Below, piece by piece: positions 222 through 44,837 of a stretch of DNA of 64,000 nt. Every line of letters starts with the position of its first letter. The first letter of the stretch is position 1. The translations under genes were made by a program, and so were the position numbers. This stretch comes from Octopus vulgaris (lineage: Eukaryota), in NCBI GenBank assembly GCA_951406725.2, contig OX597814.1, positions 99,014,001-99,078,000 on the forward strand, read 5' to 3'. The notes below the pieces were generated by a model, which had not been told where the DNA came from, ran no database searches, and saw nothing but the letters and a program-made list of their open reading frames with translations.

Positions 222-1250
222 CGAATGGTTACCCAAAAGAAATCGGCATTTCGCAATGTTATTATATTCACTTAGATTTACATGTTTACACTTTTATTGC
301 CTTCAAAGTCTTCCCCATTTGAAACAGTGCATCGGTCCAGACAAGACAGTGTGCGAAGGTGCATTGTCGTGATGAAACCACCTCCATTTTGCGACCGGTC
401 GGGGTGTTTTCGTCTCGCCGTCTCTTGCAAACGCTTCAGAACTGTTAAATAAAATGGCTGGTTAACAGTTTGACCAAGAGGAACAAATACTGTGTAGATA
501 ATTCCTTTCGCGTCGATGAAACAAATCAGCATCGTCTTGACATTGGACTTCAGTTGACGCAGTCTTGGGGAAAGTGGTTTCCTTGAATGCTTCCATTGAC
601 TTGTTTCCTACTTCGTTTCCGGGCCGTAGCCGTAGCACCAGCTTTCGTCACCAGTGAAGACCTTCGAAAAAAGGTTCGGATCAATTTTCAACTGTTCTTT
701 CAGTTCACGACGCGCATTCAGTCGTGACTGCTTTTGATCTTCCGTGAGCAAGTGAGGCACAAATTTTGCTGCAACTCTTTTCATTCGCAATTCCTCGCTC
801 AAAATTCGTTGGGAGGAGCTCCAAGACATACCAGTCATATCAACAAGTTCGTCAATTGTGCAACGACAGTTCTCCAAGATCAGGACATGAACTTTCGGGA
901 TGTTTCCATTCGTTCGGGAGGTGGACAGTCGCCCTGAACGAAGTAGGTCGTTAAGCGACAAGTGACCATTCCTAAAGTATGAAAACCACTCATAAACTTA
1001 TGTTTTGCTCATGGCAGTGTCCTTGTAAACTGCTCGAAGCATGACAACTTCTTCGGTCTCCTGTTTTCCTAGCATGAAACAGAATTTGCTCCTTCGTTTC
1101 AGCCATCGCAAAAGTCAACGACTCAAGACGACGCCGTTCGGCAGACTGATGCCAGAGAGTCGCATCAAGTCGTTGCTAGCGACGTGAACCTGAACTACAG
1201 CGGGCTTGTCTCACAGAGAACGTTTCCGGTTACTTTTGAGTATCCCCTAG
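222..1250 (-). mobile_element. Decayed mariner (Tc1/mariner) DNA transposon with internal deletion
   Basis: ORF 608..961 has an HTH-like region, KFVPHLL (WVPHEL motif) and TGDESW (first catalytic D). ORF 278..532 continues with CFIDAKGII..GQTVN..Y..VLKRL. The YSPDLAP region is missing. Degenerate TIRs: cgaatggttacccaaaagaaatcgg (222-) and ccggttacttttgagtatcccctag (-1250), each flanked by TA. Confidence 0.9.
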
Positions 1251-1349
1251 TAAAGGTACAATAGAATACAAATACTAAACTAACAATCCTTTTACAACAA
1301 AACTAGGAGTTATGTAACAATTGAATACGCAAGAATCTTTTACCTTCTT

Positions 1350-1712
1350 TATTTTTGACTTGTTTCAGTCATTAGAGTACGGCTGGGGCCACAGTCTTGA
1401 AGAATTTTTCAGTCAAATATATCGTCCTAGTACCTATTTTTTAAAAGCTAGTACTTATTCTATCGCTTGAGTTTGCTGAACCGCTAGATACGGGGACGTA
1501 AACACACCAGTACAGCTATCAAGCGGTGCTAGTAGGGGAGAAACAGAGACTCAAAGACACATACACTTATACACATACATACACACAGCCATACGACGGG
1601 CCTCTAGTTGTCCCTGCCAAATACACTCAAAAGGCTTTGGTCAAAGACACTTGCCCAAGGCTATGGTAGAAAATACTTGCCCAACGCTATGGTAGAAGAC
1701 ACTTGCCCAAGG
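1350..1712 (-). mobile_element. tRNA-derived SINE, family A (internal microsatellite), degraded
   Basis: Reverse complement of the family seen at 50748-51150 (cttgtttcagtcatt..., gacacttgcccaagg repeated three times). Confidence 0.8.
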
Positions 1713-2261
1713 CACGAAACACACACACATACACACACACATTCCACCTCGTTTACATATATTTACATATATCTGTAGGAGGAGAAGCCATAAAATAGGG
1801 AGTGAAAATGCAGAGTAAAAAAAAAAGTAGGATGTAAAGCAAAAAAAAAAGAAAAAGAAAAAACAATTTAAAAGAAAAATAGAAAGGATTTCCGTCCTTA
1901 GTCTTTGCTAGAGATCAATGAGATCACTTCTTTAGCCATTTGTCAGAGAACGAAGAGATCAAGAACTGACCATAGCATCACTTTTCCCTGCAGCATTAGT
2001 AGCATAAACCACCATGGAAGATGTAGAAAAGAGGGTAAAGTGAAAAATATTGGAGACTGTCACACAGAGAGCGTTTTCGGTTAGTTTTGAGTATCCCCTA
2101 GTAAAGGTAGAATACAATACAAACACTACACTAACAACCATTTTATGGCAAAACTAGGAGTTATGTAACAATGGAATACGCAAGATAAAAACAAAAACGG
2201 AACAGGAACGAAGTGGGAAGAGAATGAGGATACCGTAAAAATGTACTGGAATAAGTACACA

Positions 2262-2648
2262 TATAACTCTTCCCCCTGGAGTGTAGGCGGGAGAGATATG
2301 CAGTGATATACATGGAAAATCCTGGAGAGCCTTGTCCCGAATTTTGGCATTGAAAGTTACCCCAGCAGCAGAACGGGGTGCCACTGCATGGTGCCAAAGA
2401 TCTCAACATCAACATCACAATACAGGACCAGATACTGCAACAGCTTGGGTTTCAGGGGACCACAGCTCTTCAATATCTTTTCTAAATGCCTGAGAGACCT
2501 GTATGGTGTGGATGTGGGTTTCTTTAAAACTAAACTGGATCTCTTCTTGTCAGGGGTTCCAGATGAACCTACCTCTCGGCTGGAAACACAGATGCGGGCA
2601 GCGGCGTCGAACTCCCTTGTTGACCAAGTGCCACGTATCAGCGGTGGT
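2262..2648 (+). mobile_element. CR1-group LINE ORF2 C-terminal fragment
   Basis: Translation, with one frameshift: LECRRERYAVIY/WKILESLVPNFG...YCNSLGFRGPQLFN...FKTKLDLFLSGVPDEP...RAAASNSLVDQ. This is the typical post-RT tail of invertebrate CR1-like LINEs. Confidence 0.8.
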
Positions 2649-3377
2649 TTCATATACTATTGTAGCACATTCAAACAATCAACGGTGGTGCGACAGCATG
2701 GCCGCAGCTTTCGGGCTGAAATATTTTTAAAGATTTTAAGGATTTATAAAGAAAACACTAAAGACGAAATTCCCTTCATCTGTTTTCGTTGGTTATCAAA
2801 GTAATTTCGGCATCTGTCGATATTTTCTTTACAACCAATAATGTCAGTGCCGCGAACTTCTATGGAATGATAGTCTTTAGACGCATACGCACGTACATAC
2901 AGACATATATACATATGTATACATACAAACACACATACATGCACAAATATAAAAGAGATTTGTTGTTTGAGGCAGGAACAATGCGCGAAGGTACGAAGTA
3001 ACTTGTAAAAGGAACACTTAATACATATACATACATATTATACACCAATGTACACACACACACATATATACACACGTACACACATTAATATACACCTACA
3101 AATATATGTCTATTTACATGTCCATATCTATCTAGTTTTCTCTATACACGTATCACGCACACTCAAACTCACACACACACACACACACACACACATGCAT
3201 ATGTATATATGATGACCATACATAGAATCACATGCGCATACATACATGACGGACACATACTCACGTAGGATATGACATTGACATTATGACAAAAGGTAAC
3301 TAACGGTGAAATAAACACGGAAACTATATTACAAACAAATATACATTCACGATGAGCAAATGTACGAGTGTGCGTAA

Positions 3378-3625
<248 letters not shown>

Positions 3626-5994
3626 TAAATATCTATGTATTTGTGCGCGTGCAAGCCTCGTGTGTGTTTATGTGTTTATGTGTATATGTGTGGGTTTGTG
3701 TGTGTAGATGCTTAATGCATTAAATTACTCTGGAATGTTTATTAGTTTCGTTCTTCCTATTTCTATGTCCAATCATCGTTTCTATTTCTTCCTTGCTCAT
3801 TCCACGCAATATTTATTTCATCTCACTAATACCTTCATTTCGCAAATGTCCGTGCGTGTAAGATTCAGTTTCTTCTTTCTCGTTTCTCGTTCTCTGCCAT
3901 CCGCGCCTCCGCCCCAAGCATCCACCACCACTACTGCTACTACCATCTCATGCCCATCACCGCTTTCTCGCTAGCAACAACCTCGCCATCCTCTCTGTCT
4001 TGACCTGAGCTATTCATATCAACGTCTCAATAGCCGTCCGGACAGATTGGAAACAGGCATATAGAACAATTATAAATATGACAATATATAATGATAAATA
4101 TGTCATCATTTCACTTGTGTTGAATATTTATCGAAACTTACATTGAACACGATTTGGTTTTGTGGTATTTCTTTGTGTTAGCGTTGACGCTGATGTTGGT
4201 GTTGGCACTGGCGTTGGTGCTGGTGTTGGCGGTGGTAGTGTTAATCATGATTCTTATAGTTGTGGTAAAGGTGTTGGTATTTTTGTTGTTCGTGCTGGTG
4301 TTTAGCCACTGGTCAACCTTGATCAAGAAGACCGATAATTCGTAAGCTTTCCAACGTTTCTTCATGGCTACGTAAGACAATAACTAATGTGATTTTCCCC
4401 TTACTTAAGACGGTATGGTGTGTATGCTATAAGGGAGATTTGACTGCTATTTCTATCAGGGTGTCTGATCACTTAGAGGCTTCTTGGAGTTTATGTGGTG
4501 GAGACGGTGCCTTTTGATATTATGAGTCTTGTATTGAGGTAGTGCTGGCGTTGGTACGATTGATATTGATGTTGCATCGATAACATTATCTCTGCACGAC
4601 TGAGAAGGCAAAGTCAATACTTGAAACTTACTATTGCTGCTGTTGTCGAATCCCATATCAGTCATGATTTAAAGACACTACAACAGTGACCTCCCTGTCT
4701 TTTTGCCAGTCATAATGTATCTATTACTACATAATGCAATGTTTTTGTATGTACTTTTTAAAAGAAAGTATGAGTATGGCTTGACGAAATTTAATAATTG
4801 TTTATACCAGCTAATGATAGTGCCACTACGTATATAATTAGAAACAGCAGTTACGTCTCTTTCAAATCTTTTTTAAAATGATGCAATATGGATGAAACAA
4901 AAGAAGAATCATGATTTGTGGAGACATGACTGTTATCTCTAGCGGTAACGCTGAAAGGTTTGTATCTAGAATTATTAAAACAATTCATGGCTATTCATGA
5001 TATAGGCTTCAAAATTTTGCACAAGGCCAGCAAGGTCGGGGAAAGGGGGCTAGTCGATTACATCGAATCCAGTGTTCAACTTTATCGACCCCTAAAGGAT
5101 AAAAGGCAAACTCGACCCCGGTGGCATGCGCGTTCATTTTATTTGGTAACACTTTAAGTGATGTATGGGTTTGATTGATCGTCACTTTGGCTGTTAAAAG
5201 CATTTTTTCAGAAAAAAATATTTTAGTTGGGGTAAGATATTTTAGTTTAATATTCTAGTGCCGATAAGATATTAACATACTGCTCATAATTCCTGGTACC
5301 AGTGACAGCTTTTGCAAAACTAAAGCCTTTTTCTAAAATGAGTGTGTCTCGTTGTGAAATTATTTTATCATCACCATCTAGCGGACATAGCCAACAGGTA
5401 TCGATGACATTCGGCTTTAGTACGATGTGGTGGTTAATAGCCTGGTTAGGCATTCCCAACAGACTTGTTTAGCCAATTCTCGCCTCCTTCAATGTGCCCA
5501 ATGCCTCAAATCATTAAAACCCCAATCATTACTCCCCCATAACATTGGCCTGCAGGAATGAATACTTGCCATCTGTACCTTTCATGTATGTGTTGTCTTG
5601 TTGCAGTTTAAATCGAGAATCATCGATATCAGGCTCAACGGTCTCAGAAGCTGCCGCAAACATCATGAACCTTGTTCCTTCCTCCACACTCAGAAAGTTA
5701 TTAATACATACAAATACATACATACATACATACATACACACACACATATATATAGCTAGATAGATATATGCAATACGTATATATATAAACGTACATATAT
5801 ATATATATGCATACATATATATATATACATACATACATACATACATACATACATACATACATACATACATACAGAGTGCTTGCTAAGAAAAAAAGAGAGT
5901 TCGTGTATATGTGTTTGTGTGTGTATCTGTGTGTGAATGTGTCTGTGTGTATGCGTTTGTGTGTGTGTGTGTGTGTATGTGTATATTTGTGTGC

Positions 5995-16548: not shown

Positions 16549-16846
16549 AACGTCGCCGTTTTCAAGCCTAGTCAGACTCATGGGCCCGGTTTCCTGGTTT
16601 CTGTGGCGTATGTGTTCCCCTCAGCTGGACGGAACGCCAGTCGATCGCAGCGTTACTCAAGAAACAGGAAAAGAGAGTGAGAGAGTTGTGGTGAAAGAGT
16701 ACGACAGTGGTCGCCACCATTCCTTGCCGGCGTCTCGTGGAGCTTTTAGGTCGTTTTGCTCAATAAACACACACAACGCCCGGTCTGGGAATCGAAACCG
16801 CGATCTTCCGAGAGTCCGCTGCCCTAACCACTGGGCCATTGCGCCT
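16548..16846 (-). mobile_element. tRNA-derived SINE
   Basis: Minus strand begins aggcgcaatggcccagtggttagggcagcgg...gtttcgattcccag (A and B boxes). Confidence 0.85.
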
Positions 16847-16951: not shown

Positions 16952-16989
<38 letters not shown>

Positions 16990-17200
16990 ATATAGGGTGG
17001 CAAAAGATTTCGTAGAATTTATTTGCCACCAGCGGCCTAGTGGGAAAAAATTAAATAGTCATAGACCATTTATAAGTTCAACATCACAATCAAGGAATGG
17101 CCATAATAGGCCATTCACCCACTAGAAATAACAGCCAAAGCTTCAACCGCAAAATAACATTAATTCCGCAAACCAGGAGAAAATTAAAAAAACATTTACC

Positions 17201-17313
17201 CTGTAATTTCTTATACGATGCACCGTTTCATCTATTGTTTAATGGTAAACTAACCTGATTAAATTAAATCAAGCCAATCTTCCATAGGCCGATAGATTCG
17301 TCAGTAAGAACAG
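17201..17313 (-). ncRNA. Type I hammerhead ribozyme, copy 1
   Basis: Minus strand: ctg-ttctta CTGACGA atctat..atagat GAAA cggtgcatcg TA taagaa-atta-cag. Core intact and stems I, II and III all pair. Confidence 0.88.
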
Positions 17314-17685
17314 CCAGATCCGAGCAGATATTATCACGAGGCACCTCTATCCCTGCCTCGGCAATATCTGACCTAAAATTTTCAAATCATCGCACTCGCG
17401 CCAAATTTATCGGCAGCAAATATAAGCCGCTAATTCCATTACGGAATTAACCAGAAAATTCATAATTAATCAATATAGGGTGGCAAAAAATTTCGTAGAA
17501 TTTATTTGCCACCAGCGGCCTAGTGGGAAAAAAATTAAATAGTCATAGACCATTTATAAGTTCAACATCACAATCAAGGAATGGCCATAATAGGCCATTC
17601 ACCCACTAGAAATAACAGCCAAAGCTTCAACCGCAAAATAACATTAATTCCGCAAACCAGGAGAAAATTAAAAAAAACATTTACC

Positions 17686-17798
17686 CTGTAATTTCTTATA
17701 CGATGCACCGTTTCATCTATTGTTTAATGGTAAACTAACCTGATTAAATTAAATCAAGCCAATCTTCCATAGGCCGATAGATTCGTCAGTAAGAACAG
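17686..17798 (-). ncRNA. Type I hammerhead ribozyme, copy 2
   Basis: Same motif as copy 1. Confidence 0.88.
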
Positions 17799-18168
17799 CC
17801 AGATCCGAGCAGATATTATCACGAGGCACCTCTATCCCTGCCTCGGCAATATCTGACCTAAAATTTTCAAATCATCGCACTCGCGCCAAATTTATCGGCA
17901 GCAAATATAAGCCGCTGATTCCATTACGGAATTAACCAGAAAATTCATAATTAATCAATATAGGGTGGCAAAAAATTTCGTAGAATTTATTTGCCACCAG
18001 CGGCCTAGTGGGAAAAAATTAAATAGTCATAGACCATTTATAAGTTCAACATCACAATCAAGGAATGGCCATAATAGGCCATTCACCCACTAGAAATAAC
18101 AGCCAAAGCTTCAACCGCAAAATAACATTAATTCCGCAAACCAGGAGAAAATTAAAAAAACATTTACC

Positions 18169-18281
18169 CTGTAATTTCTTATACGATGCACCGTTTCATC
18201 TATTGTTTAATGGTAAACTAACCTGATTAAATTAAATCAAGCCAATCTTCCATAGGCCGATAGATTCGTCAGTAAGAACAG
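18169..18281 (-). ncRNA. Type I hammerhead ribozyme, copy 3
   Basis: Same motif as copy 1. Confidence 0.88.
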
Positions 18282-18750
18282 CCAGATCCGAGCAGATATT
18301 ATCACGAGGCACCTCTATCCCTGCCTCGGCAATATCTGACCTAAAATTTTCAAATCATCGCACTCGTGCCAAATTTATCGGCAGCAAATATAAGCCGCTG
18401 ATTCCATTACGGAATTAACCAGAAAATTCATAATTAATCAATATAGGGTGGCAAAAAATTTCGTAGAATTTATTTGCCACCAGCGGCCTAGTGGGAAAAA
18501 ATTAAATAGTCATAGACCATTTATAAGTTCAACATCACAATCAAGGCCGCTGGTGGCAAATAAATTCTACGAAATTTTTTGTCACCCTATATTGATTAAT
18601 TATGAATTTTCTGGTTAATTCGTAATGGAATCAGCGGCTTATATTTGCTGCCGATAAATTTGGCGCGAGTGCGATGATTTGAAAATTTTAGGTCAGATAT
18701 TGCCGAGGCAGGGATAGAGGTGCCTCGTGATAATATCTGCTCGGATCTGG

Positions 18751-18863
18751 CTGTTCTTACTGACGAATCTATCGGCCTATGGAAGATTGGCTTGATTTAA
18801 TTTAATCAGGTTAGTTTACCATTAAACAATAGATGAAACGGTGCATCGTATAAGAAATTACAG
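18751..18863 (+). ncRNA. Type I hammerhead ribozyme, inverted copy (predicted cleavage after GUA at 18850)
   Basis: Plus strand: ctgttctta CTGACGA atctat...atagat GAAA cggtgcatcg TA taagaa attacag. Confidence 0.88.
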
Positions 18864-18889
18864 GGTAAATGTTTTTTTAATTTTCTCCA

Positions 18890-18948
<59 letters not shown>

Positions 18949-40513: not shown

Positions 40514-41006
40514 TAGGTCGTTCGCCCTCATTAGGTCATTCGCCCTCATTAGGTCATTCGCCCTCATTAGGTCATTCGCCCTCATTAGGTCATTCGCTCT
40601 CATTAGGTCATTCGCCCTCAGGTCATTCGCCCTCAGGTCATTCGCCCCCGTTACATCATTCGCCCTCATTAGGCCATTCGCCCTCATTAGGCCATTCGCC
40701 CTCAGGTCATTCGCCCCCGTTACATCATTCGCCCTCATTAGGTCATTCGCCCCCGTTACATCATTCGCCCTCATTAGGTCATTCGCCCTCATTAGGTCAT
40801 TCGCTCTAATTAGGTCATTCGCCCTCATTAGGTCATTCTCTCTCATTAGGTCATTCGCCCCGTTACATGATTCGCCCTCATTAGGTCATTCGCCCTCATT
40901 AGGTCATTCACCTCCGTTACGTCATTCGCCATTATTAGGCCATTCGCCCTCATTAGGTCATTCGCTCTCATTAGGTCATTCGCCTTCATTAGGCCATTCG
41001 CCCTCA
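40514..41006. repeat. 18 bp minisatellite (ttaggtcattcgccctca), about 28 units, fused to a minus-strand SINE at about 40295-40513
   Basis: Units directly visible, with 15 bp and ttacatcatt variants. Confidence 0.95.
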
Positions 41007-42818: not shown

Positions 42819-43630
42819 CATCATCATCATTATCATCATCGTCATCGTGTAACATCCGTTTTCCATGCTAGCATGGGTTGGACGCTTCGATCTGGGTCAA
42901 GGGAACCAGGAGTGTGCACCAGGCTCCAGTCTGATGTAGCAGTGTTTCTACAGCTTGATGCCCTTCCTAACGCCAACCACTCCGTGAGTGTAATGGGTGC
43001 TTTTTACGTGCCACCGGCATGGAAACCAGTCTAGGCGGCACTGGCATCGGCCACGTTCGGATGGTGCTTTTTACGTCCCACTGGCACAGGTATCATAACT
43101 ACAATTTCCATCTGATTTTCATTTTGATGTTGAAGTACTTGACTCAATAGGTCTCCTCAAACACAGCAGATCGCCCTACGATCCAAGTTACTTTTGAATG
43201 GGCAGAGGATGGTTATGCGAAACCGGTGTAGGATACAGTCGTGAACTCACCTTATTTGTCGGGTCTTCGCAGTCACAGCATATCTCCAGAGGTCTCGGTC
43301 TTTCATCATTACCTCTGTGAGGCCCAACATCATGCTTGACCACCTCATCCCATGTCTTCCTGGGTTTACCTCTACTCCAGATTCCTTCAACTGTTTGGGA
43401 GTGGCACGTCTTCACACAGTTCTCCTCATCCATCCATAGTAGATGACCATACCAGCGCAAACGTCTCTCTTGCACGCCACAGCCGATTCTTCTTATGTCC
43501 AACATTTCTCTCTGGGCGCTTACACTCTGTCGTGTTTGCACACTGACATTACACATCCAGCGGATCATGCTAGATTCATTTCTTTCAAGCCTACGTATGT
43601 CTTCCGCAGTCATGGCCCATGTTTCACATC
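42819..43630 (-). mobile_element. RTE-clade LINE, 5'-truncated (ORF C-terminus, 3' UTR and (TGA)n tail)
   Basis: ORF 43188..43700: CETWAMT...RLERNE..MIRWMCNV...RRLRWYGHL...RGKPRKTW. Confidence 0.92.
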
Positions 43631-44837
43631 GTTCGTTTTTAATTTTGGAGAATTTAAAGCATTCAAAGATCCCATAAGTTCTAAGTAACGCTGGCATCAA
43701 GTTTGAACAAAATACGTCAAAAATGGTAAAAATTATGGTTGAAAATGGGGTGTAGCCAATTTTAGTGGGAAATCCTATAAGGAATCGGTTTATCGATTTT
43801 TCATCCTGATTGAATGGAAAACCCCATTAGGAATCGGTTTATTGATTTTCACCCCAAATAGGACTTAACCGAACACAACAAAAATCTATATTTATACGTT
43901 AAAGTTGGTTTTCATACCCAACCCAATTCTGCAGAATCATTGTCACGACGGGAACGCACGGGTTGGAAGTTTGACCAGCAAAGGTGAATAGGTTGCCCAT
44001 GCCGGCCTTTTCACAGACCAGTAGGGATAGTTTGCCAAATAACTGCAGTGGACGTTAATCAACAATTGAGACATACGCAACTGACTCAGGCTATTGTTTT
44101 GGCTGTTTGTCGACTCAGTGACCGATTCCTCGAAGTCATTTACTCACTTAGAAATTGATATCTGTTAACATTCCAAAGATTTCCTTTAATTTTCCAGTAA
44201 ATCCATATAGATTAGACTCTTGTGGAGAGGATGGGTAAATTGAAGTTCAAATTGTTTGGATCATCTGATGGAAGGTTTTATGAGATAGTTTTAGCAAAGA
44301 CCTGAAATGTAGCTGCCTCCAGATTGCCATAAAGTGATACAGAGATAAGATCCTTTTAGTATTTATCGTATCTGCCACCATGTATCAAGAAATATAAAAA
44401 TTACCTTGAGAGAATATTTTCTTTTCTCTATCCAGGTAACTACTTTCTTACTCAAATAGATGCTGATGCATGACAATGCCCCTAAACAAAGTACTCGTTT
44501 ATTCAAGCAGTTCATTTTTGAAAGAATAATATAAATAAATAAAAACTTAAGCTGCTATCGTAGCTAACTCAAACTTACGATCTCAAATCGATCAAAAAAC
44601 TCGGAGGAGATTGAACAAGACATAAATGTAAAGAAGCCACCGAATTTTAATAACATGAGCAGTGTCATTAAATATACCTGAAAACAGTTAATAATATTGA
44701 AGATGATGATGATGATGATGATAATAATAATAACAATAACTGCCCTGATGCAGTACCAGACAGTGGCCCTCGTGGCTTCTAATCTTAACTGATTGGAAGT
44801 GTTACCATGCACATTGTTTTGTCTTGGTATAAAAGAT

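Follow-up and report, generated by a model that had tools for sequence, protein, structure and literature searches.

For the copying and insertion of animal retrozymes, only proposals exist so far. Penelope-like elements were called "a strong candidate" for their mobilisation in the accessible part of PMC7229834, and in the available text of Li 2026 (10.64898/2026.07.22.740005) the two are linked so far by co-occurrence and homology, with pLTR homology found in 24 of 57 Xenopus retrozyme families. The groups that this text names include no molluscs, and it reports further that eight of nine predicted retrozyme dimers failed to cleave in vitro. For Penelope-like elements themselves, the excerpted text of Craig et al. 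2021 (10.1101/2021.04.23.441226) describes inverted copies, a 30–40-bp tail at one end and TA targets. According to the portion of Frangieh 2024 (PMC11167929) at hand, a Penelope protein cuts and extends both DNA strands in vitro, two internal RNA start sites bound the tail and a dimer is predicted; in the same portion, insertion did not need cleavage and no reads ended at the cut. In cephalopods, the giant squid paper gives 235 "hammerhead 1" loci, without context. Here we describe a repeat in a 64,000-nt stretch of the Octopus vulgaris genome, referred to in the following as the window. We read it, with a probability of roughly 70%, as a protein-free hammerhead tandem repeat, i.e., a non-LTR retrozyme, that was inserted as two arms into (TA)n, likely by a Penelope-like RT-endonuclease.

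The original prediction placed about 3.2 nearly identical, ORF-less head-to-tail units at 16987–18546. Tandem Repeats Finder returned the same array (16986–18546, period 483, 3.2 copies, 99%), with units of 483, 485 and 483 nt plus a partial unit of 110 nt, differing from each other by only 1–3 substitutions and 0–2 gap columns. The longest stop-to-stop frame in the unit is just 60 aa, in agreement with the lack of an ORF, and its GC content is 37%. The predicted extent was correct for the tandem and too short for the insertion, since an inverted arm at 18544–18888 belongs to the same insertion. The long arm runs straight into this arm, which is followed by five bases and then a TA run. The whole insertion thus spans 16986–18893 and comprises 3.2 minus-strand head-to-tail units and an inverted arm of 345 nt, with four type I hammerhead motifs (Table 1). 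The two arms stand back to back, the sense 3′ end of each facing a (TA)n flank; because both flanks are (TA)n, a target-site duplication of more than 4 bp is unreadable. Both this two-armed layout and the fixing of the ends at two internal sites, not at the ribozyme cut, were missing from the earlier picture.

Table 1. Features of the insertion in window coordinates. Unit positions are numbered along window 17470–17954, minus strand.
Feature	Positions	Strand	Description
Left (TA)n target flank	16956–16985		Read from the sequence
Long arm	16986–18546	−	Units 16986–17468, 17469–17953, 17954–18436; partial 18437–18546
Long arm ends	16986–18546	−	Outer (3′) end = site A; 5′ start = unit position 376
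Type I hammerhead motif 1	17208–17310	−	Predicted cut after 17214
"Tail" (shown in unit 2)	17464–17566	−	About 100 nt, site B (unit position 388) to site A (about 486–491)
Type I hammerhead motif 2	17693–17795	−	Predicted cut after 17699
Type I hammerhead motif 3	18176–18278	−	Predicted cut after 18182
Inverted arm	18544–18888	+	Unit positions 434–485, then 1–295; 99% identity to units; 3-nt overlap with long arm
Type I hammerhead motif 4 (inverted arm)	18754–18856	+	Predicted cut after 18850
Five bases, inverted arm to TA run	18889–18893	+	4/5 agree with site B's end
Right (TA)n target flank	18892–18921		Read from the sequence; (TG)n comes after

Directly to the left of the insertion, at window positions 16550–16830, is a GC-richer dispersed repeat, probably a SINE. 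Elsewhere in the window there is an 18-nt minisatellite of 28 copies with several open frames (40514–41006), and short frames at 608–997, 2307–2804 and 43188–43826 are presumably a mariner-type transposase piece and LINE-type pieces.

A generic type I scan of the whole window returned exactly four hammerhead motifs, all inside the insertion, with CTGACGA starting at 17304, 17789 and 18272 on the minus strand and at 18760 on the plus strand. All four have helix I TTCTTA/TAAGAA, helix II ATCTAT/ATAGAT around a long hairpin, GAAA, CGGTGCATCG and the GUA site. The scan thereby bears out the complete minus-strand type I core, with its TTCTTA/TAAGAA stem, that had been predicted for each full unit. 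In unit numbering, the predicted cut falls after position 256, and the spacing of the cuts gives predicted monomers of 483 and 485 nt, matching the 483–485 nt foreseen earlier. The proposed ctg/cag extension over an AUUA bulge did not hold up: it is not conserved, with CTA in most subfamilies, and the predicted fold favours an outer helix, TCTG/CAGG, beyond an internal loop. The fold of the 131-nt motif beat 200 of 200 shuffles (z −2.8) and that of the full unit 100 of 100 (z −5.5).

Rfam gave no matches to the motif at gathering and no hammerhead among 32 weak matches, and the identification of the motif as a hammerhead therefore rests on its core letters, topology and covariation. Parsing recovered 206 motifs from 73 of 123 insertions; 204 of them kept the CUGANGA core, with all four letters seen at N7, a count conditioned on a parser that itself demanded core-like letters. 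Among 29 distinct motifs, helix I was 100% paired, with four of its six pairs compensatory across subfamilies, and helix II had one compensatory pair in 11 of the 29 rows. The helix III palindrome stayed self-complementary, its centre changing from GC to AU in 9 of 29. Controls in which the register was slid paired at 29–43% in the same motifs. The 29 rows are related, so that the covariation amounts to a few events, not 29, and shuffle counts for it are not to be taken as probabilities. Helix III by itself could form four pairs and a 4-nt loop, with a predicted energy of about −0.1 kcal/mol as a hairpin versus −17.5 as a self-duplex. A stable predicted self-duplex fits the dimer model for animal hammerheads.

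The original prediction had proposed searching the genome with the unit, and copies of it turned out to be numerous and dispersed. In the 2.8-Gb assembly, the unit gave 151 matches at 94–100% identity on many contigs when 40 of 1,694 candidate places were scored, and a 17-base family motif had 4,258 exact matches genome-wide, compared to 0 for the reversed control. The first 100 of these motif matches formed 35 insertions within 68.7 Mb; scaled up to the genome, this gives an estimate of about 1,400 insertions. The motif of the window's own subfamily had 150 matches; a sister subfamily, with a unit of 493 nt that is 88% identical, had 923. The longest arm observed was 6,982 nt. (TA)4 was found on both sides of 97 of 112 scored insertions, on one side of 13 and on neither side of 2. 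The units are dispersed in many copies, and there is no LTR pair around an internal region. Sequencing runs under four organism codes contained 62–91% of the words of the unit at best, and none of the runs listed is on record as RNA. We found no paper in the literature on an octopus retrozyme family, which may be listed in the supplementary material of PMC7229834 or the bioRxiv papers, in Repbase or in Dfam. Some family insertions are independent and lie only 500–800 nt apart (L335 at 392–848 and from 1340 onward; L018 at 3466). At L212 (1260–1385), the hammerhead region of the unit is replaced by a palindromic MITE-like repeat of about 140 nt that itself has 338 candidate places.

The ends of the insertions were mapped in a sample of 114, made up of the first 100 matches of each of three pattern searches (35 + 28 + 51) after removal of overlaps. 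This sample replaced an earlier one of 39 insertions that was biased toward full-length units; it requires unit positions 355–385 in an arm and consequently misses very short copies. Two arms were present in 79 of the 114 insertions and a single arm in 35, a few of which bear a 10–16-nt inverted piece of site A. The outer ends of the two-armed insertions fell at two places in the unit, site A at about position 486–491 and site B at about position 388, roughly 100 nt upstream of A. One end of each kind was found in 73 of 78 two-armed insertions, and A/A and B/B combinations did not occur at all (0 and 0). The script assigned A+B to 72 of the 79 and inspection by eye to one more (L335); one (L349) was dropped because it was truncated by a locus edge, and five had one non-standard end. 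The copy in the window is one of these five, and L252 is similar. Since four of the five bases at its right end match the end of site B, the inverted arm in the window likely represents a site-B arm that underwent an internal deletion or a jump.

By sequence, the combination of one A end and one B end is the "tail" signature of Penelope. The remaining anatomy is also of Penelope type: a 5′-truncated partial tandem together with an inverted 5′-truncated copy, and a tail bounded by two internal start sites, here about 100 nt long rather than 30–40. The tail contains a GGTGGC/GCCACC hairpin and the partner of a long-range stem predicted around site B, and this stem may bring A and B closer together than the 100 nt between them suggests. 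Neither of the routes in which a single priming event is followed by fold-back fits 39 of 67 simple A+B insertions; a fold-back that starts at A is compatible with 26, and one that starts at B with 2. Arm lengths are correlated within insertions (rho 0.73), and the arms meet at overlaps of 1–7 nt or at re-copied filler. We found no report of the A/B rule in the literature searched.

The inner ends of the arms were distributed unevenly. Arms stopped at unit positions 254–292 on 42 of 150 first passes, versus 5 of 79 later passes (Fisher p 6e-5, with the arms of one insertion not being independent). The lower edge of this interval was set by the predicted cut, but we chose its width with the data in view. 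In 10-nt bins, 39 stops fell in the 30 nt after the predicted cut versus 9 in the 30 nt before it. When counted by insertion, the interval had 25 and the flanking ones 6 and 5; both arms stopped inside it in 17 of 67 insertions and only one arm in 4. The effect was strong in the sister subfamily, with stops on 22 of 46 first passes, and amounted to 12 of 45 for the mixed sample; the window's own subfamily shows no significant pile-up (8/63 first passes versus 3/25 later). We read the first-pass pile-up as run-off at the 5′ end of ribozyme-cut RNA. A stall of the enzyme is disfavoured because it should recur on later passes, which are at the background rate: among long arms passing the interval again, 8 of 95 stopped there versus 7.6 expected. 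A transcription start site that coincides with the cut may instead be the source of the first-pass edge. We found no such pattern reported in the literature searched. An apparent second peak of stops at the site-A hairpin (455–482) was set aside as not significant (8 versus 5.5 expected).

All 161 crossings of the predicted cut that we detected were seamless, which indicates that the template of multi-unit arms was continuous, either circular or uncut. In most arrays the units are nearly alike; in L270, the seven units on the two arms together hardly differ from each other. Four arrays (L271–L274) have variants shared between units at periods of 2–4 units, and a fifth (L251) has shared variants in non-periodic blocks. 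These patterns would fit either multimeric circles or duplication after insertion, and array length by itself is therefore no proof of a circle. The earlier argument from near identity to recent copying from a circle is correspondingly weak, as shared variants fit block duplication equally well, although the near identity itself was confirmed. The case for RNA circles is by analogy with what is known of the retrozyme class and not from these data. The head-to-tail joint was present in one of two runs that we guessed to be RNA, both covering 29 of 29 bins, and was discarded as evidence of expression or circles, since DNA runs also have the joint.

We then turn to the presumptive helper. Among the best 150 of 6,136 candidates for GIY-YIG there were 148 matches, 16 of them in open frames of 781 aa that carry RT and GIY-YIG domains. 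The Penelope-type frames show the linker cysteine motif given for Neptune/Nematis in the accessible text of Craig et al. (10.1101/2021.04.23.441226). Two of the families, F1 and F2, each have a pair of sites at which copies end in (TA)n, separated by 40 and about 34 nt, respectively. F1 is a young, Neptune-like family, seen in L061 at 906–4590 and L064 at 768–4471 (G000:C16, C6), and has a 781-aa RT-GIY-YIG frame; ahead of it, and overlapping it, is a second frame, up to 479 aa long, for which Pfam gives no match. Its subfamilies vary in a terminal hammerhead-like motif, some having a degenerate core, with a canonical one alongside in L039. At L437 (1105–1504), a 37-nt piece around this motif is repeated in ten head-to-tail copies inside a TA run. 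The F2 terminal repeat at L070 (4790–4985) has a minimal hammerhead-like motif, identified by eye (CCGAAGA core, GTAC palindrome), and a tail of about 34 nt.

One insertion, L201 at 2005–2180 (G000:C11:53.258 Mb), joins the retrozyme family to F1. Here, a family arm ending at A is connected head-to-head, via re-copied filler and with no TA run, to a 170-nt F1 end with its tail that is 98% like other F1 copies. No second such chimera turned up in about 130 insertions of the family or in 30 of 36 F1 tail loci. It suggests that F1 is the helper, or could be a deletion that fused two neighbours. On the basis of this one chimeric insertion, F1 is the best helper candidate. Two of the 30 F1 tail loci pair a tail with no tail and one pairs a tail with a tail (L443), so that the rule of one end of each kind is not absolute in F1. 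Several other candidate contacts were rejected. L272 abuts an F1 end tail-to-tail with a TA run between them and was read as two insertions; a 53-nt match in L033 stems from a truncated sister-subfamily copy next to an unrelated old repeat; and L202 is a recombinant with an old repeat.

The original prediction had also called for a check of adjacency to Penelope RT/GIY-YIG ORFs, and in the sampled loci the units were not attached to one. A fragment of a Penelope ORF lies near 5 of 266 family loci (four places; 761 kb) and is never part of an intact element: two of these places are apart from the repeat, one is beyond the TA run and one (L085) abuts it. The abutting ORF was rejected as helper evidence, being old, frameshifted and at most 88% like its relatives, beside a family copy of 99%. 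The element contains no RT + GIY-YIG frame, which an autonomous Penelope-like element would have. We saw no terminal-repeat homology to the unit in the 127 Penelope-type loci sampled, which represent about 11 of the genome's families (L031–L078, L169–L188, F12 and the F1 tail loci included). A search with a variant A-end pattern gave 26 matches, all continuing into a unit, a TA run or a junction, and 0 into an ORF.

The sequence itself shows how the insertions are built, how many copies there are, that their outer ends are fixed at two sites and that short arms pile up at the predicted cut. For the process behind them we propose the following model. A tandem transcript would cut itself after GUA, probably aided by two motifs pairing via the self-complementary helix III. 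A pair of Penelope-type enzymes would break (TA)n on both strands, with one strand priming reverse transcription at internal site A and the other about 100 nt further upstream, at site B. Short microhomology or re-copied filler would then join the two cDNAs head-to-head. A linear, ribozyme-cut monomer would yield short copies in which both arms run off just past the cut, and a continuous template, likely a ligated circle, would yield multi-unit arms that cross the cut scar-free. Some long arrays were probably enlarged afterwards by unequal exchange. That the genome records the complete retrozyme life cycle, with a dimeric Neptune-like enzyme, one priming per site and strand, and both cut monomer and ligated circle as templates, is a tentative extension to which we give somewhat less than even odds. 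If true, the footprints would be in vivo evidence for cutting of the transposition template by the hammerhead, and F1 and the octopus family would constitute a concrete helper–parasite pair for reconstitution. The footprints are countable, namely two fixed start sites, of which each arm uses one, run-off at the ribozyme cut confined to the first pass and one chimera with a family that has an intact ORF, and they thereby define a direct reconstitution test of the mechanism.

The closest competing account keeps the Penelope-borne parasite and dispenses with the circle. Multi-unit arms would arise from uncut read-through transcripts of arrays already present and from unequal crossing-over following insertion; the hammerhead would cut just a fraction of the RNA, or the first-pass edge would reflect a transcription start or a stall of the enzyme at the folded motif. 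The periodic and block-like shared variants in five long arrays are as expected from such a process, and seamless crossings suit an uncut RNA as well as they suit a circle. In addition, junctions peak on short palindromes at 261–285, uncut RNA was the main substrate in the available portion of Frangieh 2024 (PMC11167929), and local tandem amplification is proposed in that of Li 2026 (10.64898/2026.07.22.740005). However, a stall should repeat on every pass, contrary to the background rate on later ones, and there is no 5′-end peak among long arms that would mark a promoter. The near-identical seven units on the two arms of L270 also speak against it, and copying from linear templates only should shrink arrays over the generations. 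We consider this account unlikely, although it has more in its favour than the two that follow.

The units could also be multimerised pLTRs of an autonomous Penelope element outside the sampled set. The anatomy is that of Penelope insertions, and scoring the best 150 of 6,136 GIY-YIG candidates would leave rare families unseen. Against this, Penelope ORF fragments are as scarce near the family as described above, with the abutting one decayed, and the variant A-end matches (26/26) lead elsewhere than into an ORF, making such an origin highly improbable. An ordinary minisatellite or an assembly artefact with a chance resemblance to a ribozyme might explain why Rfam does not recognise the motif. 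This idea is effectively refuted by the same anatomy at more than 100 places, the compensatory changes in the helices, the private differences between units and the presence of the head-to-tail joint in contigs from other sequencing runs. The preferred reading remains a retrozyme that was inserted in two arms, likely by a Penelope-like enzyme.

Judged from its sequence, the element is an apparently new family of a known class, the non-LTR retrozymes, with predicted cleavage. The original proposal of a retrozyme is sustained by the tandem units, the covarying type I hammerhead, the dispersal and the Penelope anatomy, although what emerges is an ordinary member of a described class. Like the metazoan non-LTR retrozymes in the accessible part of PMC7229834, the family is tandem, non-coding and low in GC, has one type I hammerhead per unit, is dispersed as anything from monomers to long multimers and coexists with Penelope-like elements. 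It differs in its unit of 483–493 nt, compared to 150–450 nt there, in the long hairpin inserted in helix II and in the two-armed insertions with fixed A/B ends, which are absent from that part of Cervera and de la Peña 2020 (PMC7229834). Known retrozymes are described there as linear and circular RNA, whereas such RNAs of the present family are putative. It also falls within the definition in the available text of Li 2026 (10.64898/2026.07.22.740005) of no fewer than two successive units carrying a complete hammerhead, where family lengths range from 51 to 972 bp, and co-occurs with intact Penelope-type ORFs as reported there.

With EN+ Penelope-like elements, as far as described in the excerpts of 10.1101/2021.04.23.441226 and PMC11167929, the family shares partial tandems, an inverted 5′-truncated copy, a tail at one end and the (TA)n target, and in the latter source Poseidon PAc likewise has ends at two internal sites distant from the ribozyme cut. 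Unlike those elements, it has no ORF, its tail is about 100 nt instead of 30–40 nt, and the rule of one A and one B end is almost strict. Genomic 5′ ends pile up at the predicted ribozyme cut here, in contrast to the PAc reads, which show no such pile-up in the portion of PMC11167929 at hand. The dimer hammerheads of Penelope in the accessible text of Cervera and de la Peña 2014 (PMC4209133) have the same self-complementary helix III/loop 3, although helix III of the octopus motif is predicted to form its four pairs and 4-nt loop alone, weakly. Finally, while the link between retrozymes and Penelope in the available text of Li 2026 (10.64898/2026.07.22.740005) consists of co-occurrence and of pLTR homology in Xenopus, the link in the octopus is made by the anatomy of the insertions and by one chimera.
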